DNA from: Thermoanaerobaculia bacterium
GTDB lineage: Bacteria > Acidobacteriota > Thermoanaerobaculia > Gp7-AA8
DNA length: 64,000 nt
Assembly: GCA_036522835.1 (NCBI GenBank)
Contig: DATDFB010000057.1
Coordinates: forward strand, 3,906-67,905
Reading direction: 5' to 3'
Part shown: piece by piece, positions 3,309 to 59,864 of the stretch
Layout: every line of letters begins with the position of its first letter
Position numbering within the stretch: the stretch's first letter is position 1
The notes under the pieces: model-generated
The model's input: the letters and a program-made list of their open reading frames with translations, nothing else
The model's database searches: none
Told to the model about the DNA's origin: nothing
Position numbers and translations under genes: made by a program

Positions 3309-4806
3309 CCGTCACCTTCGTCACGCCGAACGGCAGCAGCATCGCGAAGTTCGGCGCGACGGCGTAGAACGGGCGGAGGTCGATCGGATTGCCGAGGAGC
3401 GCCGTGCCCGCTTTCGCACAGAGATCGCCCGTGCGGAGCATGTTCTCGATCGGGCGCTTCACGCGCATGGTCGGATAGAGCGCGTTCACCTCGTCGCGCA
3501 GGTTGCCTTGCGGCTTCTCTTTGTACTCCTTCGTGAACGACGTGACGGCGAGCTGATTGCCTTTCAGCTCCGCCTGCCAGGCCACGTGCGGCGCGCCCTC
3601 GGACGGGAAGCCGTCGTACCCGCCGTGGAAGAGAACCCCCGCCGGCGTCACCTCGGCGGCCATGTCGATGAGGTGTCCGCACGCGGCGGCGTTGACGTAT
3701 GACACATCCTGCCTGGCGATGCGATTCTGCGCGTCGTAGGTGTAGCGCGACGTGACGGCCTGCCCGTCGAGCACGAGCTCCTCGCGGTCGAGCAGCCACG
3801 CCTCGCCCGCTTTGTGCGCTCGGAAGTCGAGGAGGCCGGCGCGCTCGAGGTAGTCGGCGCCCTGCACGAGGCCCGGCCCGCTCAGGATCTCGCCGTCGTA
3901 CGTCCACCCCTCGCGCTTGCGCGCGTCCTGGATCTGCTTCTGCTTCACCGGCGTGTAGCGAAGGTCGTCGAACGGCACGCACGACAGCGTCTCGTTTCTG
4001 GCGACGCGGTCGTCGGCGTAGAACGACGTGCGCGTCGCGCCGTCGCTGCACGCGCGCGCATTCGCGTACGGCCCGTGCCAGCAGCGCGGGCACCACATCG
4101 CCCCCGTGGGGAGGCGGAGGCCGCAGAACGAGCAGACGATCTTCGTCTTCATGTCGTCGATCTCGCTCTCGAGCGCGAGGATGTGCGGCTCGATGTCCGC
4201 CTTTGACGCGGCGTCGAGGCCGGCGTAGCGGTGGAAGCGCTCCGCGGCCGTCGCCAAGTCGCCGCGCTTCTCGAAGATCACCGCCTCGTTGTAGACCGGC
4301 GCCGGGTCGTTCGGCCGCTTCTGCTCCGCGTCCTGAAAGAGCTTGAGCGCGGCGTCGTAGTCGCCCTTTTGGTAGAGGAAGCGGCCGCGCGTGAAGATCT
4401 CCGTGTACTCGTCCTCGGCCTGTTTCTTCTTCTGCAGCTCGCGCTGGAAGTCGAGCTCGAGCTGGAGCTTGGCGAGGTTCTCCTTTTCCGGTCCGGCCGG
4501 GTAGAGCTGGTTGTAGCGGTCGACTTTCTGCTGGGCCTCGGAGACGCGCCCGGCCTTGGCGAGCGTGAGGGCCATGTCGTACAGCACGCCGGCGACGTCG
4601 GGCTGCAACTGATCGGCCTTCGCGAACTGCGCGTAGGCCGCGGTGTAGTCCTTCATCGAATAGAACTTCTGGCCGAAGAAGACGGCCTTGGTGAACTCGT
4701 CCTCCGGCTGCTGCGCAAGACCGAATGCAGAATGCAGGATGCAGAATGCAGAAACGAGCAGCACCGCTCGCCATTCTGCATTTTGCATTCTGCATTCTGC
4801 ATTCAT
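3289..4806 (-). CDS. TPR-repeat protein with internal zinc-ribbon (CxxC...CxxC) and a C-terminal domain of unknown function
   Basis: The real protein is the C-terminal 505 aa of the 1115-aa ORF-track entry. The start ATG at 4804-4806 makes an ATGA overlap with the stop of the upstream gene. Motif IVCSFCGLRLPTGAMWCPRCW. The N-terminal 25 codons lie inside a family-D palindromic repeat. Confidence 0.55.
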   Translation of the reverse strand: MNAECRMQNAEWRAVLLVSAFCILHSAFGLAQQPEDEFTKAVFFGQKFYSMKDYTAAYAQFAKADQLQPDVAGVLYDMALTLAKAGRVSEAQQKVDRYNQLYPAGPEKENLAKLQLELDFQRELQKKKQAEDEYTEIFTRGRFLYQKGDYDAALKLFQDAEQKRPNDPAPVYNEAVIFEKRGDLATAAERFHRYAGLDAASKADIEPHILALESEIDDMKTKIVCSFCGLRLPTGAMWCPRCWHGPYANARACSDGATRTSFYADDRVARNETLSCVPFDDLRYTPVKQKQIQDARKREGWTYDGEILSGPGLVQGADYLERAGLLDFRAHKAGEAWLLDREELVLDGQAVTSRYTYDAQNRIARQDVSYVNAAACGHLIDMAAEVTPAGVLFHGGYDGFPSEGAPHVAWQAELKGNQLAVTSFTKEYKEKPQGNLRDEVNALYPTMRVKRPIENMLRTGDLCAKAGTALLGNPIDLRPFYAVAPNFAMLLPFGVTKVTVTTPAK

Positions 4807-4808
4807 TG
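4720..4808. repeat. Palindromic repeat family D (AGAATGCAGAATGC...GCATTCTGCATTCT), variant copy
   Basis: ccgaatgcagaatgcaggatgcagaatgcaga...ccattctgcattttgcattctgcattctgcattc. Related to the copies at 16331 and 19814. Confidence 0.75.
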
Positions 4809-5915
4809 CAGCAGCGCCTCCACCACCCCGCCCACCCAATCGTCGATCACCGGCGACGTTGCCAGATACGAGTAGAGTGCGTGGCGCTTCTGCTCCGACG
4901 GCGCGCTCGGGTTGCGCAGCACGCCCGCAGGATCGGGCATCAGGTCGACCACGACGTCGCGCGCGTCGCGCGGCGCCCAGTGCGAGGGCATGTCGCTGCC
5001 GAAGAGCTTCGACACGAGCGCAAGGCGGTCGCTTTCGCCGTGCGCGGCGCGCGCGGCGGCGGCGAGGCGGCCCTTCGAGCTCTCGATGAGCATGCGAAGA
5101 TTGGATAGCACCTGCAGCCGGCGCGTGCAGGCCTCGAGGATCTTGACGTCGGAGAGGGCCGTGCTGGCGGCGAGGATCTTCTGGATGCGGTCGGTCTCGA
5201 CGGAGATGAACGCGTCGGCCGGATCGTCGGCAGGGGGCGCCGGCTCGTCGACCTTCACCTCCGGCGTGGCCGGCGTGGCCACCGGCGCGGGCGGCATGGC
5301 CGGCGTCGGCACGATCTCGGCGAGCGGCAGATCGGAGATGGCCGGCGCATCGCCGATCTCGCTCTTCGGCATGCGCAGATCGGCCGGCTCGTTGGCGATC
5401 GCCGCCGGCGGCGGAGCGGGCGGCAGCGGCACGAGCTTCGCCGCACCGAACGGCGAGCCCGCCGGCGCGGCGGGGTCGCGCATCAAATCCGAATCCGTCG
5501 GCACTTCGGCGTCCATCAGCCGCTCGCGCACGCGCAGCCGCGTGTCGCCTGCCTGGCGCAGTTGAGCGTTGCGGGCCACGTCGTTGAGGTACGTCGCGCT
5601 CATGTCGCAGTGGCAGGGGCCGAAGTTGTCGGGCAGGTAGCGCTTGTCGTTGCGCTGGCGGTAGAAGTCGACGACCGCGGCGTTGTGGCGCATGGCCGCG
5701 TCGCGGGCGCGCTCGCAGGCGGCCTGCGAGGCGAACTGGTTGATGCCCGAAAACTCGTTGAAGCCGCGTAGTTCCGGGTTGTACATCTGCACGTGGTAGT
5801 GGAAGACGTCGCAGTGCGCCGGGGGCGTCGCAGAAGGCGGGCAGAGCAGCGCCTGCCCGAGGGCCGAGCCCGCCGTCACCGCCGCCACGAGAAAAACGCT
5901 TACGCGAAGCCGCAT
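4803..5915 (-). CDS. hypothetical secreted protein with Pro/Ala-rich linker
   Basis: Signal-peptide-like N-terminus MRLRVSVFLVAAVTAGSALGQA. Central PAPPPAAIANEP...PAMPPAPVATPATPE linker. The start ATG sits in the terminus of a family-B repeat. Confidence 0.5.
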   Translation of the reverse strand: MRLRVSVFLVAAVTAGSALGQALLCPPSATPPAHCDVFHYHVQMYNPELRGFNEFSGINQFASQAACERARDAAMRHNAAVVDFYRQRNDKRYLPDNFGPCHCDMSATYLNDVARNAQLRQAGDTRLRVRERLMDAEVPTDSDLMRDPAAPAGSPFGAAKLVPLPPAPPPAAIANEPADLRMPKSEIGDAPAISDLPLAEIVPTPAMPPAPVATPATPEVKVDEPAPPADDPADAFISVETDRIQKILAASTALSDVKILEACTRRLQVLSNLRMLIESSKGRLAAAARAAHGESDRLALVSKLFGSDMPSHWAPRDARDVVVDLMPDPAGVLRNPSAPSEQKRHALYSYLATSPVIDDWVGGVVEALLQ

Positions 5916-5977
5916 GTGGAGCGCGCCGGCCATGCCGGCGCCGTAAGAGCGGCGGCATGGCCGCCGCACTCCACAGA
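5911..5977. repeat. Palindromic repeat family B (CATGTGGAGTGCGGCGGCCATGCCGCCGC hairpin type), full copy
   Basis: tgtggagcgcgccggccatgccggcgc / gcggcggcatggccgccgcactccaca inverted arms with a small loop. Related copies at 11935, 39177, 48433, 50644 and 51916. Confidence 0.8.
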
Positions 5978-6039
5978 ATATACGACTTCAACACCGCGGC
6001 CCCTCTCGTCGTACCGCTGGCGACGAAAGGAGAACCTCC

Positions 6040-6507
6040 ATGAACAAGAAGCACCTCACCATCGCCGGAGTGATCGCGGCGCTCGTCCTCGTCGCGGCGC
6101 CCTTCGCGCTCGCCCAGCGGATGCACGGCGCGGCTCGCGGCGGCCCCGGCAGCGACCTCGGCGGCGTGATGTTCCTCGGGCACCTCCAGCGCGCCAAGCA
6201 CGCCCTCGGCCTCTCGGACCAGCAGGTCACCGACATCGAGACCATCTTCCGCGACCTGCGCACGCAGAACCAGACCTACCGCGACTCGCTTCACGGCGCG
6301 ATGGGCGAGATTGCCACCACGCTCATCAACAATCCGAACGATCTCGCGGCGGCGCAGGCGCTGCTCGACAAGCAGGAAGCGACCGAGCATCAGATGAAAG
6401 TCAACGCCCTGCAGGCGGCGTCGAAGGCGCTCAACGTCCTGACGCCCGATCAGCGCGCCAAGCTCGGCGACTTCATCAAGGAGCATCACGGCCCGATGGC
6501 GCGGTAA
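6040..6507 (+). CDS. periplasmic LTXXQ-motif protein (Spy/CpxP/ZraP family-like)
   Basis: Signal peptide MNKKHLTIAGVIAALVLVAAPFALA. LTPDQRAKL motif. Helical composition. Confidence 0.65.
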   Translation: MNKKHLTIAGVIAALVLVAAPFALAQRMHGAARGGPGSDLGGVMFLGHLQRAKHALGLSDQQVTDIETIFRDLRTQNQTYRDSLHGAMGEIATTLINNPNDLAAAQALLDKQEATEHQMKVNALQAASKALNVLTPDQRAKLGDFIKEHHGPMAR

Positions 6508-16309: not shown

Positions 16310-16330
16310 GGCGCGTTACGCCCGCATACC

Positions 16331-16427
16331 ACGGAAACTTAGAACGCAGAATGCGAATGCAGAATGAAGAAAGCTTCGCCGGCGATTTCTCAATTCTGCA
16401 TTCGCATTCTGCGTTCTGAATTTCCGT
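16331..16427. repeat. Palindromic repeat family D, full ~97-bp copy
   Basis: cacggaaacttagaacgcagaatgcgaatgcagaatgaagaaa...tttctcaattctgcattcgcattctgcgttctgaatttccgtg. Near-identical to the 19814 copy. Confidence 0.85.
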
Positions 16428-16446
16428 GGGCCGAAAGCAGGCGAGC

Positions 16447-16717: not shown

Positions 16718-17776
16718 ATGCGAGTCCTGCACCTCGCCGCCGGAAACCGCTGGACCGGAGCCGCCGCGCCGGCGTTCGCCGAGGTGGCGGCGCTGCGCGA
16801 GGCGGGAGTCGATGCGCACTACGCCTACGTCGGCGGCTACAAGCTCGAGCAGAAGCTCGCCCACGTCGGCTTCGCCCACCCCGCGATCGCCAAGGCGCAG
16901 AATCCGCTGTCGTTCCTGCGCACAGCCACGAGGCTCGAGCACCTCATCGACCACCACGGCTTCGACGTCGTGCACGCGCACCTCACCTACGATCACGTGC
17001 TGGCGCGGTTCATCGCCAAGCGGGAGAAGGTGCGGATCGTGCGGACGTTCCACTCCCGGCGGGTGATCCGCGGCGACGTCTTCACGCGGGCGCTCGTCCG
17101 GCGCACCGACGCGATTTGCGTGATCAACGACGCGCTCGCCGAGGCGGCGCCGATCCGCGGCCGTTTCGCGCTCTACACACCGCCGCCGCTCGACACGCGG
17201 CAATTCACGCCCGAGGGGCCGGACTTGCGCGGGGCCTACGGCGTCGAGGGCGATGCGCTGCTCCTCGTCGCCATCGGCAAGCTCGATCCCGCGCGCGGCT
17301 TCGAGGACGTGCTGCGGACGTACGCACTGGTACGGCAGGCCATCGCCACGGCGCGGCTGATGATCATCGGCCACGGCCCGCACCGCCCGGCGCTCGAAGC
17401 GCTGGCGAGCTCGCTGCAAATCGAGCCGATCTGGGCCGGTTATCACGAGGACGATCTCGCCGAGCACTACCGCGCCGCCGACGTGCTGCTCTTCACCGCG
17501 CGCGGCTCCGACGAGGGCCACCGCGCCGTGATCGAGGCGATGGGCTGCGGCGTCGTGCCGGCGACGTATCGCCTCGACGGCATGCCCGCGATCCTCGGCG
17601 AGCTCGGCGCGGAGTCGCTGGCGGCGTCGCCGGCGCCGCAGGCGCTGGCCGAGCGCGTGATCGCCATCGCCCAAGGCGATCTCGCCGCATCGCGCCGCGC
17701 GGCGTTCGCACGGTCGGCGGAGTTTTCGTACGGGAAGGCCGCGGAGCGGCTGATGAAGCTGTACGAGTCGCTCTAA
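16718..17776 (+). CDS. glycosyltransferase family 1 (GT4-like)
   Basis: MRVLHLAAGNRWTGAAAPAFAEV N-terminus. C-terminal GT1 motif region ARGSDEGHRAVIEAMGCGVVPA. The ORF-track start at 16520 is an upstream artifact. Confidence 0.8.
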   Translation: MRVLHLAAGNRWTGAAAPAFAEVAALREAGVDAHYAYVGGYKLEQKLAHVGFAHPAIAKAQNPLSFLRTATRLEHLIDHHGFDVVHAHLTYDHVLARFIAKREKVRIVRTFHSRRVIRGDVFTRALVRRTDAICVINDALAEAAPIRGRFALYTPPPLDTRQFTPEGPDLRGAYGVEGDALLLVAIGKLDPARGFEDVLRTYALVRQAIATARLMIIGHGPHRPALEALASSLQIEPIWAGYHEDDLAEHYRAADVLLFTARGSDEGHRAVIEAMGCGVVPATYRLDGMPAILGELGAESLAASPAPQALAERVIAIAQGDLAASRRAAFARSAEFSYGKAAERLMKLYESL

Positions 17777-18400: not shown

Positions 18401-18479
18401 GTGTCATTCCGAGCCGCGAAGACGGCGAAGAATCCCGTGCCTGCCGGCAGGGGGTCCCTCGCTCCGCTCGGGATGACAC
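18401..18479. repeat. Palindromic repeat family A, full copy (intergenic)
   Basis: gtgtcattccgagccgcgaagacggcgaagaatcc...ctcgctccgctcgggatgacac. Confidence 0.8.
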
Positions 18480-18484
18480 GGCGG

Positions 18485-19816
18485 TCATGCCGAGGCGATC
18501 ACTTTCAACTCGACGAGGATCGGCGTCGGCAGGGAATCGACGCCGACCGTCGTCCGCGTCGGCTGGATCTTTCCGAGCGTCTCCGCGTAGACGCGGTTGA
18601 AGCGCTCGAAGTCGCGCTTCATGTCGGTGAGGTAGACGGTGACGTCGAGAACTTTGTCGAGCGAGCTGCCGGCCTCCTCGAGGATCGCCCTGACGTTCGC
18701 GATCGTCGCGCGCGTCTGCGTCTCGATGTCGGGCGCCGGCACCTCTCCCGTCCCCGGTTTGCGCGGGCCGACGCCGGAGAGGAAGAGGAGGTTGCCGACG
18801 CGGCGCGCGTGCGGGTATGGGCCGACCGGCGGCGGCGCCTTCGGCGTGACGAGCACCTCAGGCGTCTCTTCGCCGGGCGGCGGCGCGGCTGCGGCGAGAA
18901 CGTTGTGCGTCTCCAGTCCCGTGCCGCTCGACTGCGCGAAGGTGATCGGCGCCCCTTCGTCGAACTCCTTCTCCCACTCGATCTCTTTCTGCGGGTTCGG
19001 CGTCAGCTCGACGATGGCGTTGCCGGTGCCCCACACCGGCTGGTAGTCCCACACCTTGCCGTCGTAGCGGTTGTGCTCTCCCATCAGCGCGGCCAGCCAC
19101 CAGATGGCCTTGAAGCCCATGTCGGCGTTCGCTTCGCGGGCGAAGTCGCGCGCGACCTGGGCCACGTCCTCGAGCCGCCCCTCGCCGAGCATCTCCAGGA
19201 TCTTGCGGTTCCACTCGTCGTCCTTCGCCGAGGAGACGCGGTCGTGGGCCGGGTCGATGTCGCCGACTTCGTAGCGGTTGGAGAGGTTCGTGACGACGAC
19301 GACGACGGTTTTCTTGCCGTAGTGGTCGATGGCCGCGCGGCCGGCCATGCCGAGGGCGCGCGTCTCCTCGCGCTCCGCGTAGATGTTGCAGGACACGACG
19401 GAGGCGGGGACGGCGTTGTCCGGATTGAGGAGCTTCAGCGCCACGACGGTGCCGGTGTCGATCGGAAAGCCGTGATAGCTCACCTCCGCCGCCTGCATGC
19501 CGTTCTGTTTGCAGATCGCGCAGTAGAGTTTTCCGAATTCCGGATCGACGCGGAACTCGTAGGGGATCTCGCCGAACTGGTACCAGTTCTGATCGACGAG
19601 GATCCACTTCGGCGCGGGGTCGGTCTGGAAGAGGTGGCCGATGACGGAGAACCACTGCGTGGAGTAGACGAGGATCAGCTCCGCGCCCGACGCGGCGATC
19701 TCGCGGCCGACGGCCTCGTAGCTCGCACGCAGCGACGCCCAGCCGGGGCTCTTCTCCGGCGCGAGCAGGACGTGGGGTTGGCCGGGGACGAGATAAGCCT
19801 TCTGGATCATGGCCAC
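18485..19816 (-). CDS. fusion protein: LigB-family (class III extradiol dioxygenase-like) N-terminal domain plus RidA/YjgF (deaminase) C-terminal domain
   Basis: N-terminal ~300 aa are LigB/AmnB-like (YLVPGQPHVLLAPE..., HGFPIDTGTVVAL). C-terminal ~120 aa, VGNLLFLSGVGPRKPGTGEVPAPDIETQTRATIANVRAILEEAGSSLDKVLDVTVYLTDM...TRTTVGVDSLPTPILVELKVIA, are RidA-family. Confidence 0.65.
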   Translation of the reverse strand: MAMIQKAYLVPGQPHVLLAPEKSPGWASLRASYEAVGREIAASGAELILVYSTQWFSVIGHLFQTDPAPKWILVDQNWYQFGEIPYEFRVDPEFGKLYCAICKQNGMQAAEVSYHGFPIDTGTVVALKLLNPDNAVPASVVSCNIYAEREETRALGMAGRAAIDHYGKKTVVVVVTNLSNRYEVGDIDPAHDRVSSAKDDEWNRKILEMLGEGRLEDVAQVARDFAREANADMGFKAIWWLAALMGEHNRYDGKVWDYQPVWGTGNAIVELTPNPQKEIEWEKEFDEGAPITFAQSSGTGLETHNVLAAAAPPPGEETPEVLVTPKAPPPVGPYPHARRVGNLLFLSGVGPRKPGTGEVPAPDIETQTRATIANVRAILEEAGSSLDKVLDVTVYLTDMKRDFERFNRVYAETLGKIQPTRTTVGVDSLPTPILVELKVIASA

Positions 19817-19926
19817 GGAAAATTAGAACGCAGAATGCGAATGCAGAATGAAGAAAACGGAGTCCGTTGGCCAAGGCGCTCCGGTTTTCTCAATTCTGCA
19901 TTCGCATTCTGCGTTCTGAATTTCCT
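19814..19926. repeat. Palindromic repeat family D, full ~113-bp copy
   Basis: Same termini as the 16331 copy, with a longer central loop. Confidence 0.85.
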
Positions 19927-19930
19927 TGAT

Positions 19931-37332: not shown

Positions 37333-39167
37333 TCCGCCGCACGCTGCTGCTCTTCGCCGCCAATCTCGTGCTCTTCACGCTGCTGCGGGTGGCGTTTCTC
37401 CTGGTCTTCGGCCATCGCCTGGCCGGGAACGATCTTCTGCGCGCCTTTTACCTCGGATTGAAATTCGACGCGCGGCTGGCGGCGCTGGTCGTCGCGCCGA
37501 TCGCGATTTTCGGCACGCGCCGCGCGGCGACGATCGTCTTCGCAATCTTCGAGCTCATCGTCCTCCTCTGCTACGCCATCGACTTCGGCTCGTACGCGTA
37601 CGTCCACCAGCGCGTGAACGCCAGCGAGCTGGAGTTCCTCCGCAATCCGCTGATCTCGCTGCACATGGTGTGGGAGTCGTACCACGTCGTCTGGTTCGGG
37701 CTGGGCATCCTGCTGTTCCTCGCGGCGCTCGTGTTCGCGCTGCGCGGCGGCGACGTGTCATCCCGAGCGCAGCGAGGGATCCCCCGCGACCCGCTCTGGC
37801 AGCGCATCGCCCTCATCGTCTTTCTTCTGGCGTGCATCTACGGCAAGGCCTCGCGCTACCCGCTGCGCTGGAGCGACGCCTACGTCGCACGCGATCCCTT
37901 CGCCGCGGAGCTCGCGCTCAACCCGCCGCAGTTCCTCTTCGAGACGATGCGCGAGGAGCCGGTGAAGCTCGACGAGAACCGCGTGCGGCGGCTCTACCCG
38001 GTCATGGCCGCGTATGCCGGAGTCGATCGCCCCGATCCGAAATCGCTGTCGCTGGCGCGCACGCCGAGGCTCTTTCCGCAGACCACCGGGGCGCCCAACG
38101 TCGTCGTCATCCAGCTCGAGTCCTTCGCGGCGTTCAAGAGCGGCGCGTTCGGCAACCGCGCCAACGGCTGCCCGAACGTCGACCGCCTGGCGCGCGAGGG
38201 GCTGCTCTTCACGAACTACTACTCCCCCTCGGAGAAGACCGCGCGCGCGCTCTATGCCGCCGTCTTCGGCATGGCCGACGTGAGCCCGTGGCAGGCCGCC
38301 GGCAACAACCCCATGGCGGTCGACCAGTACACGATCATCAACGCCTTCCGCGGCTACGAGAAGTATTTCTTCCTCGGCGGGAGCGCGAACTGGTCGAACA
38401 TCCGCGGGATGCTCGCGCACAATATCGACGGACTGAAGATCTTCGAGGAAGGCTCGTACAAAGCGAAGCCGGTCGACGTCTGGGGCGTGACGGACGAAGA
38501 GGTGTTCCTCACGGCGAGCGACGAGCTCTCGAAACAGCGCAAGCCATTCTTCGCGCTGATCCTGACCTCCGGCAATCACCGCCCCTACACCGTGCCGAAG
38601 GAGACGCACGGCTACGCGCGCGAGATCCTGTCGAACGAAGACCTGCGCGCGAACGGCTTCGAGTCGAACGACGAGTACAACTCCTTCCGCTACCTCGACC
38701 ACGCCGTCGGCCTCTTTTTCGAGAAGGCCGAGAAGGAGCCGTGGTTCAAGAACACCGTCTTTGTTCTCTACGGCGACCACGGCACGCGCACCGGCGCGCC
38801 CGGCGAAGCGCTCACGCTCGGCGACCTCTCGCTCATCGTCTACCACGTGCCGATGATCATCTACGCGCCCGGCTTCAACGTGCCGCCGCGCAGGATCGAC
38901 ATCGCCGCGAGCCACATGGACCTGATGCCGACGATCGCGAGCTTTTGCGGAGTGCCGTACCGCAATCAGACGCTGGGCATCGATCTCTTCGATCCGAATT
39001 CCGCCGGACACTCGGCAGCGTTCGTTTTTACAACGTTTCGCCAGCCGCCCACCCTCGGCCTGGTCGAAGGCGCGCGCTACACGATCGTAAAATCGGGGAC
39101 GAGCAACACCCTTCCGGAAGCGTTTTATGAGTTTTCTCGTTGGCTGATGCTGCACAATAAACCGTAA
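37329..39167 (+). CDS. LTA-synthase / sulfatase-family (alkaline-phosphatase superfamily) polytopic membrane enzyme
   Basis: ATGA overlap with the LLM gene. N-terminal 5 TM helices, then sulfatase-domain motifs VVVIQLESF...YSPSEKTARALYAAV...GDHG. Contains an in-frame family-A repeat arm. Confidence 0.78.
   Translation: MIRRTLLLFAANLVLFTLLRVAFLLVFGHRLAGNDLLRAFYLGLKFDARLAALVVAPIAIFGTRRAATIVFAIFELIVLLCYAIDFGSYAYVHQRVNASELEFLRNPLISLHMVWESYHVVWFGLGILLFLAALVFALRGGDVSSRAQRGIPRDPLWQRIALIVFLLACIYGKASRYPLRWSDAYVARDPFAAELALNPPQFLFETMREEPVKLDENRVRRLYPVMAAYAGVDRPDPKSLSLARTPRLFPQTTGAPNVVVIQLESFAAFKSGAFGNRANGCPNVDRLAREGLLFTNYYSPSEKTARALYAAVFGMADVSPWQAAGNNPMAVDQYTIINAFRGYEKYFFLGGSANWSNIRGMLAHNIDGLKIFEEGSYKAKPVDVWGVTDEEVFLTASDELSKQRKPFFALILTSGNHRPYTVPKETHGYAREILSNEDLRANGFESNDEYNSFRYLDHAVGLFFEKAEKEPWFKNTVFVLYGDHGTRTGAPGEALTLGDLSLIVYHVPMIIYAPGFNVPPRRIDIAASHMDLMPTIASFCGVPYRNQTLGIDLFDPNSAGHSAAFVFTTFRQPPTLGLVEGARYTIVKSGTSNTLPEAFYEFSRWLMLHNKP
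37755..37790. repeat. Palindromic repeat family A, single-arm (solo) copy inside the sulfatase-family gene
   Basis: gtgtcatcccgagcgcagcgagggatcccccgcgac, encoding VSSRAQRGIPRD in frame. Confidence 0.7.
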
Positions 39168-39176
39168 TCGCAAACG

Positions 39177-39206
39177 ACAGCGGCGGCATGGCCGCCGCAC
39201 TCCACA
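39177..39206. repeat. Palindromic repeat family B, single-arm copy immediately upstream of the hflX start codon
   Basis: acagcggcggcatggccgccgcactccaca, followed directly by ATG. Confidence 0.75.
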
Positions 39207-40460
39207 ATGCCTGAAACTGCCATCGCCGTAGGACTTCTCCTGCCGGACACATCGCGTACCGTCGCCGACGAGCACCTCGACGAGCTCGAGAAACTGATCG
39301 AGACGGCCGGCGGCAACGTCGTCGCCAAAATGCTGGCCCGCCGCCCCGCGCCCGATCCCGCCACCTTCGTCGGCAAGGGGAAGGCGGAAGAGATCAAGGT
39401 CATCGCCGAGAATCACGGCGCGCAGCTCGTGGTCTTCGACGACGACTTGAGCCCCGCGCAGGTGCGCAACCTCGAGAAGATCACGGGCGTCAAGGTCATC
39501 GACCGCAGCGGCCTCATTCTCGACATCTTCGCCGGCCGCGCGCGCAGCCGCGAGGCGCGCACGCAGGTGGAGCTGGCGCAGCTCGAGTACACGCTGCCGC
39601 GCCTCACCCGCGCCTGGACGCACCTGGAGCGGCAGGCCGGCGGCATCGGCACGCGCGGCGTCGGCGAGACGCAGATCGAGCTCGACCGCCGCATCATCCG
39701 CAACCGCATCGCCCACCTCAAAGAAGAGCTGCGCAAGATCGAGCGGACGCGCGTCACGCAGCGCAAGGCGCGCAGCAGCGCCTTCACCGTCGCGCTGGTC
39801 GGCTACACGAATGCCGGGAAGTCGACGCTCTTCAACCAGCTCACGCGCGGCGGCGCCGAGGCGGTCGACAAGCTGTTCGCCACGCTCGATGCGAAGTCGC
39901 AGCGCGCCGCGTTCGAGATGCCGCGCGAGACCGTCGTCATCGACACCGTCGGCTTCATCCGCAAGCTGCCGCACAACCTCGTGGCCTCGTTCCGCTCGAC
40001 GATGGAGGAGGCGGTCGCCGCCGACCTCGTGCTGCACGTCATCGATGTGAGCCATCCACAGTACGAAGAGCAGCGCACCGTCGCCGAGGAAGTGTTGAAA
40101 GAGCTCGGCGTGCCGGCGGAGCGGGTCATGGAGGTCTACAACAAAGTCGACCGCGCCGAGACCATGATCCGCCGCAAGGGCGCCGTCGGCGTGTCCGCGC
40201 TGACGGGGCGGAACATCGACAAGCTGGTCGATGCCATCCGGCAGCGCGAGCTCGAAGGCGGCGAGGTCGTGCAGCTCGAGATCCCGCACTCCGAGCCGAA
40301 GCTCCTGGCGGAGCTGCACGAGACCGCGGTGGTGTACGCGCAGACGGCATCCGACGACATCACGGCCGTCACGGCGTGGCTGCCGTTCGAGGTCCTGCCG
40401 CGATTCACCGAGTACCGGCGGCCCGACGTGGCCGCCGCCGCGCGCGCGACGCTCAGGTGA
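39207..40460 (+). CDS. hflX: GTPase HflX
   Basis: HflX N-terminal domain, then G-domain motifs GYTNAGKSTL, DTVGF, NKVD. Confidence 0.9.
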   Translation: MPETAIAVGLLLPDTSRTVADEHLDELEKLIETAGGNVVAKMLARRPAPDPATFVGKGKAEEIKVIAENHGAQLVVFDDDLSPAQVRNLEKITGVKVIDRSGLILDIFAGRARSREARTQVELAQLEYTLPRLTRAWTHLERQAGGIGTRGVGETQIELDRRIIRNRIAHLKEELRKIERTRVTQRKARSSAFTVALVGYTNAGKSTLFNQLTRGGAEAVDKLFATLDAKSQRAAFEMPRETVVIDTVGFIRKLPHNLVASFRSTMEEAVAADLVLHVIDVSHPQYEEQRTVAEEVLKELGVPAERVMEVYNKVDRAETMIRRKGAVGVSALTGRNIDKLVDAIRQRELEGGEVVQLEIPHSEPKLLAELHETAVVYAQTASDDITAVTAWLPFEVLPRFTEYRRPDVAAAARATLR

Positions 40461-41577
40461 TCGTGCGCAAGCGGTCGTTGATGACGCGCGTCCGCCCGCC
40501 GGCGTTGATGCGCAGCTCGAGACCCGGCTTGCCGTCCAGATCGGACGCGCCGAGGTACGTCCATGCCGCGCCGGCCGTGTAGGTGAAGCTCGATCCGTCG
40601 GCATCGTGGTAGATGTCGATGGCGCTTCCCACGTTGAACACGAGATCGTTGCCGGGCCGCCCATCGGTGTCGACGGCGTCGACCAGCGTCCACCCTTTCG
40701 TGCTGACGAGGTGGCTCGTCACGGTGCCGCCGGCGTCGTGAATGATGCGAACGGCCGATCCGATGTTGAGAATCAGCTCCGCGCCCGCCTTGCCGTCGAG
40801 ATCGGCGGCGCGCATGAACTTCCACGAGCTGCCGCCGTCGTAGTCCCTCGACGCGCCCGTGCCGGCGTGAACGATCCGGATTTTGGAGCCGAGATTCAGC
40901 ACCAACTCCGCGCCCGGCAGTCCGTCGAGCTCCGCCGAGGTGACCAACGCCCACGCCGGCCCGAGAGCCGGAAAATCGACGACGCTGTTGCTGCCGTCGC
41001 GGATCACGCGGAGCGTCGATCCGAGATTCACCGCCAGCTCGGCGCCCGGCTTCCCGTCGAGCTCCGCGATCGTGACGACCGTCCAGACCGGGCCGAGATT
41101 CGCAGTATCGCTCGAGGTGCCGGCCGCGTCGTGAATGATGCGGATCGTCGAGCCGAGGTTCAGCACGAGCTCCGCGCCGGCTTTGCCGTCGGTATCCACC
41201 GTGGCGATCAGCTTCCACGCCGCCGCCGCGTTGTAGTCCTGCATCTTGCCGGTCGCGTCGCGGATCACGCGGATCTTCGCGCCGAGATTGAGCACGAGCT
41301 CCAGGCCGGGTCGGCCGTCGAGATCGGCCGCGCCCGCGAAGGCCCACCCGGCGCCGGCGGCGTACGTGTTCGACGTTCCGTTCGCGCGCTGCACGCGGAT
41401 CGTGGCGCCCTCGTTGAAGACCTTCTCGGCCGCACCGTCGCCGTTCGTGTCCCAACTGCCCATCAGGATGCTGCCGGCAGCCATGGCATCCGAGGCGAGG
41501 AGAAAGAGGGTCAGGAGCCGGAGAAACCGCATCGAAACTCCTGTCGTTTCGTACAGATGACGTCGCGCGCGGCCCAA
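40453..41577 (-). CDS. secreted beta-propeller-like protein with ~8 tandem FG-GAP-like repeats
   Basis: Repeating DLDGKPGAELVLNLGSxIRIIHDAxGT unit of ~37 aa (111 nt at DNA level). Signal peptide MRFLRLLTLFLLASDAMAAG. The true start is possibly Met16. Confidence 0.6.
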   Translation of the reverse strand: MGRARRHLYETTGVSMRFLRLLTLFLLASDAMAAGSILMGSWDTNGDGAAEKVFNEGATIRVQRANGTSNTYAAGAGWAFAGAADLDGRPGLELVLNLGAKIRVIRDATGKMQDYNAAAAWKLIATVDTDGKAGAELVLNLGSTIRIIHDAAGTSSDTANLGPVWTVVTIAELDGKPGAELAVNLGSTLRVIRDGSNSVVDFPALGPAWALVTSAELDGLPGAELVLNLGSKIRIVHAGTGASRDYDGGSSWKFMRAADLDGKAGAELILNIGSAVRIIHDAGGTVTSHLVSTKGWTLVDAVDTDGRPGNDLVFNVGSAIDIYHDADGSSFTYTAGAAWTYLGASDLDGKPGLELRINAGGRTRVINDRLRTIT

Positions 41578-42873: not shown

Positions 42874-43070
42874 GCAGAACGCTCGCACTCTGCCAACGCT
42901 CGGGAGAACGACCGGGAGGCCTCCGGCGGGCGGGCACGGCCCGCAGCGTTTGTTGGCGCGCAAATCATGTTTCCTGCGAAACCCGTACGTTCGGCCGGAG
43001 GCAACCAGCGCTGCGGGCCGCGCCCGCCCGCCGGAGGCCCTTCGTCGTCCCCTGCGTTGGCAGAGTGCGA
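42867..43070. repeat. ~205-bp nested inverted repeat (MITE-like element or structured leader) filling the intergenic region upstream of hemA
   Basis: Outer 26-bp perfect inverted repeat gcagaacgctcgcactctgccaacgc (42867-42892) / gcgttggcagagtgcgagcgttctgc (43045-43070). Inner inverted pairs ggcctccggcgggcgggc / gcccgcccgccggaggcc and cggcccgcagcg / cgctgcgggccg. Confidence 0.8.
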
Positions 43071-43092
43071 GCGTTCTGCACGGGAGGGCGAC

Positions 43093-47062: not shown

Positions 47063-50000
47063 ATGCCATACGAATGCCAGTCAGGCTTGGACGCCGCCGC
47101 CCTCAGCTACACTCCGCGCGTGCCGCGCGTCCTCAAAGCCTCGCTCTGGCTGGCCGCCTTCTTTTTCGCCTGCGGTATTTTCCTCGGCACGACGCAACTG
47201 CTTCGGGCCGTGCCGCCGACGCCGCACGTGGCCGTGGGGCGGGTGACGGTCGAGAACGCGTCGAAGCTGCGCGAGTACCTCACGGCGCTCCTCTTTTTCG
47301 TCCTCGTCCCGCCGCTGACGATCGGCCTCTATCGGCTCGGCTCCCGGCAGCTCGAGCGGTTTCCCGGCACCCTTCCCTCGGCACTCTTCGTCGCGCCATT
47401 TTTCCTCGCGCCGTTCCTTTATCTGACGACGTTCAAGTGGGGCTGGCCGCTCATCATCCCGCTCGCGGCGTCGCAGCTCGGCCCGCGCGCGCTGCTGCTC
47501 TTCCGGCGCACGCGCTGGCTGCGACAGCTCCTGGCGATGAAAGCGTTCAACGCCCTCATCGCCGCCGAGGCGCTGGCGTGGATCCTCTTCTTCTACATCG
47601 GCACGTGGCACCGCATCGCCCACATCGCCACGCTCTTTCTCGAGATCGTCTTCGTCGGCTTCTTCATCGCCCTCTTCTGGTGCGCCTTCGCCCTGATCGC
47701 GCGGATCGCCTCGTTCACCGGCGGCATCGACATCGAGGTCGCGTTCCAGAGAGTCGCCGCCGGCGCGCTGCCGCTGATCATCCTGCCGGCGCTCGGCCTT
47801 CGCTTCGTCCCGGCGCACATCGCCATCTCCACGGTCATGGCCGTGACGTTCGCGACGATCGCGATGGTTCTGCAAGGCAAGGAGCCGGTCGATGCGAGGC
47901 GCGTCCGCAACGTCACCGCGTACGTCATCTTCCCGCTCCTCCTCTATTGCGTCAGCTACGCCTCGACCGCGGCGCTCTCGCAGTGGATCGACCTCTTCCA
48001 CCGCGGCGAGTCGCTCGGCCCAGCCTTCGACTACCTCCGCGGCAAAGTCCCGTACCGCGACGTCTTCGTCCTGCACGGCCTGCTCGAGGACGGCCAGCTC
48101 GACGCCTGGCTCTTCCAGCTCTTCGGCCGCAATGCCGGCATCGCCCTGGCGCGGCCCGTGATCCTAGGCTCGTTCGCCGTGCCGGCGCTCTGGTACGTCG
48201 GCATGGCCATCTTCGACTCGATCCCGCTCGCGGCGCTGGTGATGCTCCTCGGGGCCGTGACAACGGTCGACAACGAGCGCGAGTTGTGGGAGATCCTCGT
48301 CCTGGCGCTGCTCCTCGGCGCGCTGCGGCGGAAATCGAAAATGCTCTATGTCCTCAGCGGCGTCGCCGCCGGCGTCACGCTCTTCTTCAGCTTCGACATC
48401 GGCCTCTACTCGATCGCCGGCGGCTTGATCGTTTGTGGAGTGCGGTGGCCACGCCACCGCTCTGACAGCGGCGGCATGGCCGCCGCACTCCAGATCTTCG
48501 GCATCGCGATCGGCACCGCACCGTTCATCGCATATCTGGCGAGCAAAGGTGCCGTTAAAGCCTTCTTCGAAACCTCCTTCGTCACGATCCCGCGAATCAT
48601 CGACGCCGTCTGGTCGCTCCCCTTTCCCGACCTCACCTCCACGTTCCGCAGCAAGAATCTCAACCTCCACACACTCTCCGACTTTTTCCTCTACGAGCAC
48701 TTCCGCTACATCCTCAATCCGCTCGTCATCTGCCTGGCCATTCTGGTGCTGCTGTGGCGGCGCAAGCGGTGGGAGTGGATCGACACCGCCCTCTTCGCGC
48801 TCACGATCTTCGCCGTCCTCACCCAGCGCAGCGCGTTGGGCCGCGCCGACTTCCCGCATCAATACTTCTCCGCGTTTCTCATCGGCCCGATGATCCTCAT
48901 CCTCCTCGTGCTTCTCGCGCGGGCGGGGCAGTGGTCGGTGGCGCTGCTCGTGCCGCTGCTCGCCGTCGTGCTGTGGGTGCCGGACATCGCCAACGGCCGC
49001 ATCGACGACACCTGCCACTACCAGGGCCGCGTCAGCGGCACCATTCGCGACCCGAAGGCGGAGGAGGTGCGCAACCGCATCGACGCCGTGCGCTACTGGG
49101 TCTGGCAGCACAGCAAGCCGAATCAGCCGATCTTCGACTTCTCGAACCAGCCGGCGCTCTACTTCTTCTGCGAGCGGCCGAATCCGACGCGCTTCTACCA
49201 GGTGCCGATCCTCTCGCCGCCGGCGCTGCAGCGCGAGACGATTCTGGCGCTCGAGCGCGCGAAGCCGCCCGTCGTCATCCGGCGCTCGCCGCAGGAGTTC
49301 GACGTCTTCGACGGCATCGACAACGCCATCCGCGCGCAGGCCGTGGCCGCGTATCTCGACGACTTCTACGTCTTCGCCCACACCACGCGCGGCGTCGAGG
49401 TGTGGGTGCGCAAGGCGCCGGCGCCGCAGCTCAATCTCGCCGGTTACATGCGCCGCTACCGCATCCCCACGCTCGAGGAGCTCGGCACGATCGGCGGGCG
49501 CTCGCGCGTCGTCTTCCCGACCGTCGGCACCGTGCCGGGCGTCGGCGGTGCGTACTGGCGCTCCGATTTGATGCTGCACAACCCGTGGAAGGAGACGATC
49601 TCGCTCGACCTCCGTTACGTCGCCGGCGACGTCCGCGCGCACCGCAACGTCATCCTAGGCGCCGGGCAGAGCATCGTCTGGCCCGACGTCGTACGCACGT
49701 TCTTCGGCGCGCCGGAGAGCCGCGGGGTGCTGTGGATCGAGTACCGCGGCACGAACGCGCCCGTCGCGCGGGTGAAGACGTCCGATGTCGCGCACGAGGC
49801 GAAGGCGACGATCGACGCGCCGCTGACGCTCGCCGGCTCCGCGACGGCCGGGACGCCGAGCGACGACCTGACGATTTTCGGCCTCCCCTCGACGAAGGAC
49901 CGGCGGATCAACATCGGCATCGTGAACGTCGGCGCGATTCCGGCCACGTTCCGCATCACGGCGCGCTCGCGCACCGGGCAGCCGATCGGCAGGCCGATCG

Positions 50001-50188: not shown

Positions 50189-50736
50189 TCGAGCTCGCGT
50201 TGCCCTGGGGCGATCGCGCCATCGCCATCCGCGACGTCGACGATCCGGAATCGTGGCTGCGCGGAGACGAGCTCGCGGTCGCGCGCGCCTTCCCGCGCGA
50301 GAAGCGCAGACAGGAGTGGATGCTCGCCCGCGCCGCTGCGAAAGTGCTCGCGCGCCGCCGCGGCCTCGGCGACATCGCCGTCGAGCGCCCGCTCGTGTCG
50401 GTCTCGCACTCAGGCCCGTGGGCCGCGGCGGCGATCGACACGATGCCGGTCGGCATCGACATCGAAGTCGTGCGCGACGTCAGCGAGCGCGCCGCGCGGC
50501 ACTTCCTTACCGAGGAGCAGATCGCGCAGATGGAGTCATGCACGATTCCGCATCGCCTGCTGCACTTCTGGTGCGCAAAGGAGGCGGCATGGAAGCGGCT
50601 GTGCGGCTCGATTCCGTTTCTGAAAGGCGTCCCGCTGACGCTTCTGGAGTGCGGCGGCCATGCCGCCGCTTTCGATTCCGTGGAGACGATCGAGCTCGGC
50701 GGCGTCGTCGTCGCCCTCACGCGCCCCACTTCTTGA
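50185..50736 (+). CDS. 4'-phosphopantetheinyl transferase (Sfp/EntD type)
   Basis: ATGA overlap with the upstream membrane-protein gene. GIDIE and FWCAKEAAWK PPTase motifs. In-frame family-B repeat arm near the C-terminus. Confidence 0.7.
   Translation: MIELALPWGDRAIAIRDVDDPESWLRGDELAVARAFPREKRRQEWMLARAAAKVLARRRGLGDIAVERPLVSVSHSGPWAAAAIDTMPVGIDIEVVRDVSERAARHFLTEEQIAQMESCTIPHRLLHFWCAKEAAWKRLCGSIPFLKGVPLTLLECGGHAAAFDSVETIELGGVVVALTRPTS
50644..50670. repeat. Palindromic repeat family B, single-arm copy in-frame inside the PPTase gene
   Basis: ctggagtgcggcggccatgccgccgct, encoding LECGGHAAA. Confidence 0.75.
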
Positions 50737-51571: not shown

Positions 51572-51612
51572 ACGTGCGATTTTATGGCACACCGCTTGAA
51601 CCGGCTTCAGCC

Positions 51613-51915
51613 ATGCGCAGCATTGTTTGTCTCGCCGCCGTCCTCGCACTCGCGGCTTGCCGCGGCGAGAAGATTCCGCGCGACTACCAGAACAACCCGC
51701 CGGCGATGACGCACCCGGTGACGAAGTCGTCCGATACGCCGACCGCGCACGGCATGCCCGGCCCGGCGCCGGAGCCGAGCAAGGGCGCCGAGGGGAAGAA
51801 CGTGAGCCGGCAGCCGACGTCGCCGACCTCGACAACGTACACCCTCGGCGATCAGGCGCCGACGCAGACGACCAGCACCTCCGCGACGGGGACGCAGTTG
51901 AAGGTGAAGCCATAA
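51613..51915 (+). CDS. small low-complexity lipoprotein
   Basis: MRSIVCLAAVLALAAC lipobox, followed by a Pro/Thr/Ser-rich tail. Confidence 0.4.
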   Translation: MRSIVCLAAVLALAACRGEKIPRDYQNNPPAMTHPVTKSSDTPTAHGMPGPAPEPSKGAEGKNVSRQPTSPTSTTYTLGDQAPTQTTSTSATGTQLKVKP

Positions 51916-51980
51916 TGCGGAGTGCGGCGGCCATGCCGCCGCTGTAACAGCGCCGGCATGGCCGGCGCACTCCACATGCG
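51916..51980. repeat. Palindromic repeat family B, full copy; its right terminus contains the fmt start codon
   Basis: tgcggagtgcggcggccatgccgccgctgtaacagcgccggcatggccggcgcactccacATGcg. Confidence 0.8.
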
Positions 51981-52836
51981 CCTGCTTTTTTTCGGAACCC
52001 CGCAATTCGCCGTGCCGACACTCGAGGCCATCGCGCGCGAGCACGAGGTCGTGCTCGTCGTCGCGCAGCCCGACAAGCCCGCGGGCCGCGGCATGCATCT
52101 GCAGGCTCCCGCGGTGGTCGTGCGCGCGCGCGAGCTTGGGCTGCCGGTGGCGCAGCCGCCGAAGATCCGCGACTTCGCGCCGCCCGCGGCCGAGGCGGCG
52201 ATCGTCGTCGCGTACGGAAAGATCCTGCCGGCGGCGCTGCTCGCCACGATGCCGTTCTACAACGTGCACGCGTCGCTGCTGCCGAAGTACCGCGGCGCGG
52301 CGCCGATCCAGCGTTCCATCGAGCACGGCGAAGCGGAAACGGGCGTGACGATCATGCGCATCGACGAGCAGCTCGATCATGGGCCGACGCTGCTGGCTGC
52401 GTCGACGGCAATCGACCCCGATGAGCATTCGCCGGGGCTCGGCTCCCGGCTTTCGGCTCTCGGCGCGGATTTGATGCGGCGGGTGCTGCGCGAGCGGCCG
52501 GCCGAGGTCGAGCAGGACCACGCGCGGGCCACGCTCGCGCCGAAGATCGACAAGGAGGAGGGACTCGTCGACTGGAGCGCCCCGGCGCGGGCGATCTACG
52601 ACAAGTTCCGCGCCTTCGATCCATGGCCCGGGATTTTCACGGACACGATGAAGTTGATCGACGTCGCGCCGGCTTCCGGCCAGGGCGCGCCGGAAAGCAT
52701 CCTCGCCATCGACGACGGCGTCGTCGTCGCTTGCGGCGAGGGCGCGCTGCGCGTGCGCACGATCCAGCGCGCGGGAAAGCCGCGCGTGAACGCCGCCGAC
52801 GTGGCGCGCGCGGAACGCTGGCGCGTCTTCCCATGA
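51976..52836 (+). CDS. fmt: methionyl-tRNA formyltransferase
   Basis: MRLLFFGTPQFAVPTLEAI...NVHASLLPKYRGAAPIQRSI canonical Fmt. Confidence 0.9.
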   Translation: MRLLFFGTPQFAVPTLEAIAREHEVVLVVAQPDKPAGRGMHLQAPAVVVRARELGLPVAQPPKIRDFAPPAAEAAIVVAYGKILPAALLATMPFYNVHASLLPKYRGAAPIQRSIEHGEAETGVTIMRIDEQLDHGPTLLAASTAIDPDEHSPGLGSRLSALGADLMRRVLRERPAEVEQDHARATLAPKIDKEEGLVDWSAPARAIYDKFRAFDPWPGIFTDTMKLIDVAPASGQGAPESILAIDDGVVVACGEGALRVRTIQRAGKPRVNAADVARAERWRVFP

Positions 52837-56016: not shown

Positions 56017-56067
56017 ATTGTCGAAACCGGCTTAAAACAAGGGGTTTCGCACAGGAGGAAGGCGTAT

Positions 56068-56373
56068 ATGGCAGGAAAAGGTGACGTCATCAACGAGATC
56101 GCCGACCAGGCTGGGATCTCGAAGAAGGAAGCGGCCGCAGCGTTCGACGCATTCGTCAGCTACATCTCCGGCTCGTGCCAGCGAGGCGAGCGCTGCTCGA
56201 TCCCAGGGCTCGGCAGCTTCTCCGTCTCGCAGCGCAAGGCGCGCGAGGGCCGCAACCCCCGCACGAACGAAAAGATCACCATCCCGGCATCGAAGAACGT
56301 CCGCTTCAAGGCCGGCAAGGACCTCAAGGACGCCGTAAACGTTTCCGGTAAGCGGGGGTCGAAGAAGAAGTAG
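56068..56373 (+). CDS. HU family DNA-binding protein with Lys-rich tail
   Basis: MAGKGDVINEIADQAGISKKEAAAAFDAF...RNPRTNEKITIPASKNVRFKAGKDLKD, the typical HU/IHF fold sequence. Confidence 0.85.
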   Translation: MAGKGDVINEIADQAGISKKEAAAAFDAFVSYISGSCQRGERCSIPGLGSFSVSQRKAREGRNPRTNEKITIPASKNVRFKAGKDLKDAVNVSGKRGSKKK

Positions 56374-56446
56374 CCCGTCACCTGCCAGAAGCCTGCGATG
56401 AACGAGCGCTCCGGGAAGCCGGAGCGTTTTTCGTTTAAGTTGTTAG

Positions 56447-56690: not shown

Positions 56691-56723
56691 CTAAGAACTC
56701 AACAACTTAACAACCGGATCACC

Positions 56724-57749: not shown

Positions 57750-57762
57750 CGCGGCAATCGTA

Positions 57763-59855: not shown

Positions 59856-59864
59856 TCGCCGATA

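Follow-up and report, generated by a model that had tools for sequence, protein, structure and literature searches.

Palindromic repeats of probable REPIN type adjoin start and stop codons in a soil Thermoanaerobaculia genome

The 64-kb stretch of DNA analyzed here (the window; contig DATDFB010000057.1 of a Thermoanaerobaculia bacterium, Acidobacteriota, 67% G+C) carries a short palindromic repeat, designated family-B, that lies flush with the start codons of three genes: one that encodes a putative secreted protein, hflX, and the methionyl-tRNA formyltransferase gene fmt (Table 1). A 22-mer search that allowed up to three mismatches recovered eight half-units across the 64 kb, where 100 shuffles gave an expectation of zero. 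These half-units are spread over five loci as three inverted doublets, each with a 7-nt spacer, and two singlets. The first-pass annotation had counted three of six copies as ending at an ATG; the three start-flush ends stand, whereas the six copies resolve into five loci with eight half-units. Three of the five loci are extragenic, one of them in a divergent promoter region, and the remaining two lie in frame inside genes.

Table 1. Family-B copies in the window, the genes whose start codons they adjoin, and neighboring -10-like hexamers (positions count from the first nucleotide of the window)
Feature	Positions	Strand	Remarks
Gene for 370-aa protein	4803..5915	-	Signal-peptide-like N terminus (MRLRVSVFLVAAVTAGSALGQ); ATG 5915-5913, flush with doublet
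Family-B doublet, REPIN-like	5915..5975	.	Left unit TGTGGAGCGCGCCGGCCATGCCGGCGC 5915-5941, spacer CGTAAGA 5942-5948, right unit GCGGCGGCATGGCCGCCGCACTCCACA 5949-5975
-10-like hexamer TATATT	5977..5982	-	TATAAT in all four relatives; 1 base from distal doublet end; putative promoter element
Family-B singlet GCGGCGGCATGGCCGCCGCACTCCACA	39180..39206	+	GACA at 39176-39179 just 5'; TAA of sulfatase-family gene (39165-39167) upstream, hflX ATG downstream
hflX	39207..40460	+	Pfam GTP-bdg_N, GTP-bdg_M, MMR_HSR1; ATG directly after singlet
Family-B doublet	48434..48494	.	In frame, in variable loop of conserved ~1040-aa membrane protein
Family-B singlet	50643..50669	-	In 3' part of 4'-phosphopantetheinyl transferase gene (ACPS match)
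-10-like hexamer CATAAT	51911..51916	+	Overlaps stop TAA and first base of doublet; putative promoter element
Family-B doublet	51916..51976	.	Entire spacer from TAA (51913-51915) of 113-aa open reading frame to fmt ATG; 51976 shared
fmt (methionyl-tRNA formyltransferase)	51976..52836	+	Pfam Formyl_trans_N from residue 1, Formyl_trans_C

The family-B unit, 27 nt long, folds into a G+C stem of 8 bp with a loop of 3 nt and carries the unpaired tail ACTCC-A(C/G)A. Its conserved tag, GGAGTGCGG (CCGCACTCC on the opposite strand; general form 5'-T(G/C)TGGAGT), has the core GGAG(T), within T(G/C)TGGAGTGCGG, at the foot of the hairpin, a position and a degree of conservation as in the tags of repetitive extragenic palindromes (REPs). 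The literal GTAG or CGTC tag of REPs is not present in family-B; GGAG is one base off GTAG and occupies the corresponding place in the architecture. In every doublet, the tag end with its tail points outward. Stem variation is fully compensated while the tail stays fixed, as seen in six variants (GCGCCGGC/GCCGGCGC, GCGGCAGC/GCTGCCGC, GCGGTGGC/GCCACCGC, GCGGTCGC/GCGACCGC, GCGGTGCC/GGCACCGC, and GCGCAGGC/GCCTGCGC). Across 37 distinct units, 14 cells of the stem are changed on both sides, against 4.2 ± 1.7 in shuffles, and none of 500 shuffles reached that number; the family-B hairpin is under constraint. Predicted folding energies of full doublets range from -54 to -68 kcal/mol, and the AUG falls at the base of the stem; the 61-nt doublet at the secreted-protein gene scores -68 kcal/mol (z = -7.3) and that at fmt -59 kcal/mol (z = -6.6). 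A mini-open reading frame in the loop (GGAG-N10-ATG, reading MPPL-stop) was considered and dropped on inspection by eye, as its stop hangs on spacer orientation and is missing in several copies.

A stable, conserved hairpin with covariation, many copies of which stand just after stop codons, might also be a structured regulatory RNA or an intrinsic terminator instead of a DNA repeat, a reading that we consider extremely improbable. Nothing in the whole window matched an Rfam model at gathering score, and a search with the element at E ≤ 10 returned just sub-threshold matches to generic long hairpins (miRNA precursors), so a structured-RNA family was rejected. A scan for intrinsic terminators over positions 5800-6150 found none at the element, whose stems are followed by ACUCCASA and no U-tract. 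Copies also occur in both orientations and as inverted doublets, lie within coding regions, and flank a transposase gene, as described below.

The three junctions are exact to the nucleotide. On the minus strand, the secreted-protein gene begins at ...GCGCTCCACATG / ...GCGCTCCACATGCGG, where the A of the ATG is the final base of the element. The fmt junction, ...GCACTCCACATG / ...CTCCACATG, likewise has one A common to element and ATG, and the other end of this doublet abuts the TAA of the upstream open reading frame (ORF). At hflX (...GCACTCCACA|ATG, that is ...CTCCACA|ATG), no base is shared. The earlier observation that family-B copies sit directly at these starts is borne out, with ends 0 or -1 nt from the ATG, and the accompanying idea that the terminus itself contributes to the start codon holds for two of the three cases, where the A of the ATG is the terminal A of ...CTCCACA. 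The Formyl_trans_N alignment begins at fmt residue 1, which supports the ATG at 51976; position 39207 is the first possible in-frame start of hflX after the upstream stop; and the N termini of relatives start at the same codon in all three genes. The secreted protein matches no Pfam family, and its homologues at 94% and 89% identity are likewise 370 aa long. By these comparisons the three ATGs are evidently the true starts. The elements do confound start calling, as had been anticipated: the longest ORFs begin at GTG 5969 and GTG 51922, both within elements. Confusion of start calls by REPs has already been noted (Di Nocera 2013, PMC3733652). At all three genes, the element sits between a -10-like hexamer and the ATG. 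A two-hexamer sigma-70 scan of the promoter region at 5915 and in relative L081 found no promoter, so the conserved TATAAT is termed here only a -10-like box.

Beyond the window, when one genome per species was scanned for exact matches, at least 59 contigs proved to carry the 24-nt core of family-B. Most belong to metagenome-assembled genomes (MAGs) of Thermoanaerobaculia, with up to six cores per 8 kb; a few contigs come from Sumerlaeota, Hydrogenedentes, Brocadiia, Myxococcota, and Gemmatimonadaceae. Other MAGs contain numerous further doublets. Loci from this and later searches are denoted by L numbers. A search of all loci with E. coli RayT, a REP-associated tyrosine transposase (RAYT), returned one ORF, of 183 aa, in L090 (E = 1e-3). 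Its product matches NCBIfam REP_Tyr_transpos with 71.7 bits (E = 5.5e-20; just under the cut-off of 80) and Pfam Y1_Tnp (E = 2e-4), and carries the HUH motif as HYH. Family-B doublets lie to either side of the gene (L090 1308-1427 and 2059-2178). Homologues of the protein number more than 3,000 at E ≤ 1e-20, and at three inspected homologue loci, from a Thermoanaerobaculia genome, a Pirellulaceae genome, and another 3-Mb contig, the flanking hairpins have other stems and the same tag, GGAGTGCGG/CCGCACTCC. In L045 and L020, where inverted units stand far apart, the ORFs between them were considered as RAYT candidates and rejected as ordinary genes. Two further arrangements were seen in these searches. 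Upstream of a tandem RAYT gene pair, L088 (940-1130) has an array of bare tag repeats (GCCGCACTCC/AGTCGCACTCC and AGATAGAAA) without full hairpins, and a Myxococcota contig, L006 (5650-6191), has three identical units at 238-280-nt spacing within a longer repeat.

Syntenic relatives, collected by one metagenome scan and one protein search, allow filled and empty sites to be compared. L062 is 91% identical in DNA to window positions 47743-62114, L071 and L070 are about 84-88% identical over roughly 34.8-62.4 kb, and L081 and L082 about 90-92% over 1-12.3 kb; L084 and L085 are more distant. At fmt, L062 and L071 have no copy and read ...GCCGTAG-AATCGCGCCCC(G)-GTG CGC... where the window reads ...GCCATAA[TGCGGAG...CTCCAC]ATG CGC.... 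In L063, L067, and L069, TACAAT or TAGCAT is followed by 9 nt and then TTG. All five element-free relatives therefore have a box (TAGAAT, TACAAT, or TAGCAT) 8-9 nt before an fmt start that is GTG or TTG, as against ATG in the window. The start position is native, the 8-nt segment that follows the -10-like TAGAAT is missing from the window, and GTG/TTG has become ATG. The doublet at the secreted-protein gene is absent at four orthologous loci (L081, L082, L084, and L085), which read GTTGAAC.CGTATAATC-GCGGCCGTTCTCGC-ATGCGC, compared with GTTGAAGTCGTATATTC[TGTGGAG...CTCCAC]ATGCGG in the window. Here the conserved 14-15-nt leader GCGGCCGTTCTCGC between TATAAT and ATG is gone from the window, with the element in its place, now up against both the -10-like box and the ATG. 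The hflX junction, TAA-TCGCAAAC-singlet-ATG in the window, is element-free in L071, where stop and start overlap as ATGA (CCATGAGT); in L070, an unrelated palindrome lies between TGA and TATAAT-CGA-ATG. That palindrome (L070 3432-3508; GGGCGCAGGGGGCAGGGCGCAGGTGGTG...CACCACCTGCGCCCTGCCCCCTGCGC) is G-rich and extends from the stop of the sulfatase gene to hflX, the slot of the family-B singlet in the window. Native spacers at the three genes measure 0-15 nt in the relatives and, judged from the element-free orthologous loci, the start codon positions are native.

Family-B differs in copy number and site among relatives that are 84-91% identical in DNA. It is missing from L071 at all four sites covered, and L062 shares two sites with the window, lacks the fmt copy, and has an extra in-frame doublet in rsmB. 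These absences, together with the extra rsmB doublet, indicate that the family has moved since genomes about 9% apart diverged. The rsmB site presents an observation of its own: the window carries a different palindrome there (53531-53592; core TGCGCCCCTACC|GGTAGGGGCGCA), which stays in frame within a loop encoded by the rsmB-like methyltransferase gene, at the point where L062 has its family-B doublet. In L071, L063, and L067 this loop is native and 9-15 aa shorter than in the window; the slot is common to different repeat families.

In neither of the two close filled/empty pairs (fmt and the secreted-protein gene) was the native spacer simply shifted aside by the element; it has disappeared. 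This loss could possibly reflect selection that followed insertion, copying akin to gene conversion, or replacement of a target that was single-stranded. No direct repeat of the kind left by target-site duplication (TA, TNA) was found in the outer flanks of nine doublets (window, L010, L032, L039, L054, and L062); where the flanks are alike they are inverted, for example TGA...TCA. Microhomology at the breakpoints (RTGCGC, CTCSC) was suggestive and was set aside because it is inconsistent between the two sides. One explanation for the missing spacers is targeted integration into single-stranded DNA, in which the tag end would be joined by an HUH transposase to a preferred short target (...TRA| or ...CA|T) or within the open-promoter bubble from the -10 box to the start, with the strand in between replaced. 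The exact -10-to-start segment is replaced at two loci, tag ends are flush with A preferred at -1, and a coding loop is overwritten length-neutrally, all of which fit such integration. We nevertheless regard it as quite unlikely, given that only two close filled/empty pairs are available, that such replacement is not described for RAYTs, and that stop-flush copies offer no promoter bubble. A more specific version is very doubtful: that family-B doublets, as REPINs (paired, inverted REPs), overwrite a short single-stranded target, either the 8-15 nt from -10 to start of leaderless-type genes or a coding loop of equal length, by RAYT strand replacement at transcription bubbles. If true, overwriting would give formerly leaderless mRNAs a hairpin at the 5' end, and stop and start codons would be re-created from the terminal bases of the element.

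To place the three junctions in a wider context, we examined 115 unit ends from the window and L001-L059, with ORFs assigned by a rule based on third-position G+C (GC3) and random, uniform non-genic positions in the same loci as the null. Tag ends lie within 3 nt of an ORF start in six cases (null 1.2%, p = 0.002, about 4-fold), within 10 nt in 12 (null 3.1%, p = 3e-4), and within 16 nt in 19 (null 4.7%, p = 2e-6). An association specific to starts is not upheld: stop codons are abutted far more often, and copies also lie in frame inside genes. The stop codon of an inward gene lies within 3 nt of the tag end in 11 of the 115 cases (null 0.34%, p = 4e-13) and within 9 nt in 20 (null 0.89%, p = 5e-20). 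Distances to stops peak at exactly 3 nt, and none falls at 10-16 nt. Reverse-complement stop trinucleotides occur at offset 3 in 15 of 63 ends, against about two expected by our own base-composition estimate. A occupies the position immediately outside T(C/G)TGGAG in 19 of 25 ends tallied by hand in QHVS-type MAGs and in 30 of 63 ends in a computed table of all non-DATEZA ends. Individual loci repeat the window's pattern: L026 has a doublet that takes up the entire interval from a TAA to the ATG of a gene with a rimM-like N terminus, judged from its translation; L042 has four hairpins in an array that spans a divergent spacer and meets the ATG at either side; L033 has a singlet flush with an ATG and preceded by a TAA; and in L020, the stop of a 611-aa ORF ending ...SVTVE, glmS-like by translation alone, is 4 nt from GGAG. 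Start flushness is one face of a general habit of adjoining coding-region boundaries. REP termini that supply stop codons, REPs at annotated N termini, and REPs inside ORFs have been described (Di Nocera 2013, PMC3733652); a literature search for REPINs at start codons or REPs in Acidobacteria returned nothing specific.

Pure geometry might account for this pattern by itself, though we think this less likely than not. With native spacers of only 0-15 nt, flushness at these three genes is largely forced once an element is present; on the geometric view, insertion would be random and copies would survive only in the few free bases between packed genes, with no preference of the element itself. 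A different palindrome family also fills a stop-to-start gap in the window, and different families occupy the same slots across lineages (L070 at the hflX junction; the window and L062 at the rsmB loop), which fits such an account. It is harder to reconcile with the fact that native spacer bases are kept on neither side at fmt or the secreted-protein gene, with a flush end that is always the tag end, and with both the 3-nt peak at stops, with its empty 10-16-nt range, and the A just outside the tag.

The translation context of these genes bears on what an element at a start codon could do. Upstream GGAG or GAGG is found at 12 of 78 candidate first starts in the window, equal to an internal background of 12.7%, and in L082 a TAnnnT box ends 7-15 nt before the ATG in 7 of 22 called genes. 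These figures suggest widespread leaderless or very short-leader initiation, independent of a Shine-Dalgarno (SD) sequence, in this Thermoanaerobaculia lineage. TAnAAT-like boxes stand before the L082 genes at 2182, 5960, 6855, 13949, 18192, and 10001 and at window gene starts. The relatives' versions of the three flush genes are of the SD-less, short-leader type, and an element placed between -10-like box and start therefore breaks no SD sequence. Nor does it supply one. The sense-strand bases before the flush ATG are ...GCACUCCAC(A); the GGAG that adjoins the ATG is antisense, while on the sense strand a doublet has its GGAG some 55 nt farther upstream, base-paired within the stem. As regards GGAG, the proposal that the elements donate translation-initiation context is not supported. 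In folds of the mRNAs that assume a transcription start about 7 nt after the retained -10-like hexamers, the outermost bases of the 5' arm are lost; what remains is a hairpin at the 5' terminus (-47 to -50 kcal/mol), then 4-7 unpaired bases and a free AUG. From these models, an effect of a hairpin in the 5' untranslated region (UTR) on the three genes is plausible, and the hairpin could protect the 5' end or damp initiation.

Whether the element serves as a functional translation-initiation or regulatory module for fmt, hflX, and the secreted-protein gene is a separate matter, and we think it unlikely. In its favor, two of the three ATGs owe their A to the element terminus, the fmt start is GTG or TTG in five relatives and ATG in the window, the element stands between -10-like box and ATG in all three, start-flush copies recur in other MAGs (L026, L042, and L033), and the predicted transcription starts would give a very stable 5'-terminal hairpin with a free AUG. 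Set against this are the antisense or paired state of GGAG, the much more frequent abutment of stops by the same ends, and their occurrence inside genes. Absence of the fmt copy from L062, at 91% DNA identity, argues against a conserved regulatory role. Also unfavorable to the module are the absence of all four copies at the sites covered by L071 and the unrelated palindrome that fills the hflX junction in L070.

Two copies lie within coding regions. The doublet in the membrane-protein gene contributes 21 in-frame codons (...CGVRWPRHRSDSGGMAAALQ...) and is common to L062; relatives that are 57-83% identical in protein (L060, L061, and L063-L073) have other sequences of different length in this loop, and no family-B unit was found elsewhere in L060-L079. 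The singlet in the phosphopantetheinyl transferase gene reads ...LLECGGHAAAF..., and a gap-free alignment with nine homologues marks it as a length-neutral replacement of nine codons in a loop.

A short repeated palindrome, inverted doublets, a RAYT gene flanked by the repeats, and polymorphism between relatives are the features of REP/REPIN families, and family-B is likely a RAYT-associated REP/REPIN family with a GGAG-type tag whose units persist where they break nothing. REP/REPIN elements are generally thought to be moved by the RAYT, a Y1/HUH transposase. In the soil Thermoanaerobaculia host, family-B units would be short selfish repeats that survive in the few bases from a stop, or a -10-like hexamer, to the next start and in variable protein loops. 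Because many genes lack an SD sequence and have TAnAAT 7-15 nt before the start, the permitted gap is tiny, and an element that occupies the whole of it has its end right at the ATG. The native 8-15-nt spacer is gone from fmt and the secreted-protein gene, where the terminal A of the element completes the ATG. The three mRNAs would begin inside or just before the element, with its hairpin as their whole 5' UTR and 4-8 unpaired bases ahead of the AUG. Its effect is probably close to neutral or, through protection of the 5' end or less initiation, mildly modulatory, and not that of a donated ribosome-binding site.

Several points weigh against this interpretation. The 64-kb window and the fragments of close relatives contain no RAYT gene that we could find, and the apparent association rests on one other MAG with identical units and on homologues with related tags. 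As far as direct movement goes, transposition is proposed from the RAYT link and the polymorphism. Apparent replacement in place of plain insertion, seen in two close comparisons, is not what the known IS200/IS605-type mechanism would predict, any more than the length-neutral coding singlet, the A outside the tag, or the lack of a target duplication, and the mode of exactly 3 nt between stops and GGAG is unexplained by selection alone. The -10-like boxes fail the two-hexamer sigma-70 scan, gene calls outside the window follow the crude GC3 rule, and the loci, at least 59, were ascertained by an exact 24-mer core.

Comparison with characterized small palindromic elements helps to define the family. 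In E. coli, REP hairpins near stop codons reportedly affect translation or mRNA stability, as is said of work by Newbury in 1987 and by Liang and Deutscher in 2015. Family-B is similar in placing hairpins within the ribosome footprint of the stop (20 of 115 ends within 9 nt). A literature search found no study of the effect of a REP on a downstream start codon. The Correia elements of Neisseria are small inverted-repeat elements by gene starts that become part of 5' UTRs, where their hairpins can alter mRNA processing or expression; they are 100-155 bp long, duplicate a TA target, and carry promoter hexamers and a site for integration host factor (IHF). Family-B shares the start-adjacent placement but shows none of the TA duplication, promoter hexamers, or IHF site. 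Rickettsia palindromic elements (RPEs) are 100-150 nt long, A+T-rich, CGTC-tagged, and without an associated transposase, whereas in-gene copies of family-B are 27 or 61 nt long and belong to a RAYT-associated family. Both are in-frame palindromes in coding genes that add or replace a surface segment and leave the protein intact (for RPEs, as cited in PMC3733652).

The closest likeness is to REPs and bacterial interspersed mosaic elements (BIMEs) of E. coli and to the REPIN-RAYT systems of Pseudomonas and Stenotrophomonas. Shared features are an imperfect palindrome of 20-40 nt, a conserved short tag located at the hairpin's 5' foot, occurrence both as singlets and as inverted doublets, many copies, polymorphism between relatives, a RAYT gene flanked by repeats, and, for some copies, sites between same-direction genes (Bertels & Rainey 2011, PMC3116915; Di Nocera 2013, PMC3733652). 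Ends that overlap coding-region boundaries and copies in ORFs are common to both as well (PMC3733652). The tag differs, being GTAG or CGTC in those systems (PMC3733652) and GGAG(T) after T(G/C)T in family-B, as do the loop of only 3 nt and the thermoanaerobaculial host. GTAG REPs are reported to supply a TAG stop, whereas the terminal A (or AT) of family-B completes TGA/TAA or ATG, and the apparent replacement of native spacers is not described for REPs.

If correctly assigned, family-B extends the REP/RAYT system to Thermoanaerobaculia, and the GGAG-type tag appears common to a very large RAYT clade across phyla. From the filled and empty pairs it seems that a REP unit can come to occupy the entire leader of a gene that lacks an SD sequence and is nearly leaderless, even an essential one such as fmt, without destroying the gene, and replacement of target bases, should it hold up, would bear on the mechanism of REPIN spread. 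A practical consequence concerns gene calling in these soil Acidobacteriota MAGs: callers that choose the longest ORF place gene starts within the repeat, an error that knowledge of the family allows to be corrected.

Other features of the window deserve brief mention. A second, A+T-richer inverted-repeat family (CCACGGAAA.TTAGAACGCAGAATGCGAATGCAGAATGAAGAAA) occurs at 19813-19928 and 16329-16429, with related sequence near 4690-4790; the copy at 19813-19928 fills a TAA-to-ATG gap with 2 nt left on each side. Inverted pairs of a third palindromic family (GTGTCATTCCGAGCCGCGAAGACGGCGAAGAATCCC...) lie at 2324-2403, 18401-18483, 37751-37787, and 45108-45214. Upstream of an LTXXQ/Metal_resist gene that precedes an extracytoplasmic function (ECF) sigma factor gene, positions 6000-6039, like the corresponding DNA of relatives, hold a conserved small hairpin (TCGTCG-N9-CGACGA) and a strong AGGAG; this may be an operator or leader structure. 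An ARAGORN call of a 94-nt tRNA-Cys at 17605-17698 falls inside a GC3-supported ORF and is probably a false positive, unrelated to family-B. About ten tandem copies of a 21-nt unit (CTTCGATCGGAATCGCGCGCT) lie between or over small ORFs at 56489-56698, and a long imperfect inverted repeat separates two same-strand genes at 42874-43079, its 59-nt arms 78% and its inner 38-nt arms 92% complementary. On the minus strand, positions 40453-41577 encode a 374-aa protein built of six or more repeats of 129-132 nt (...DLDGKPG.ELV.N.GS..R...).

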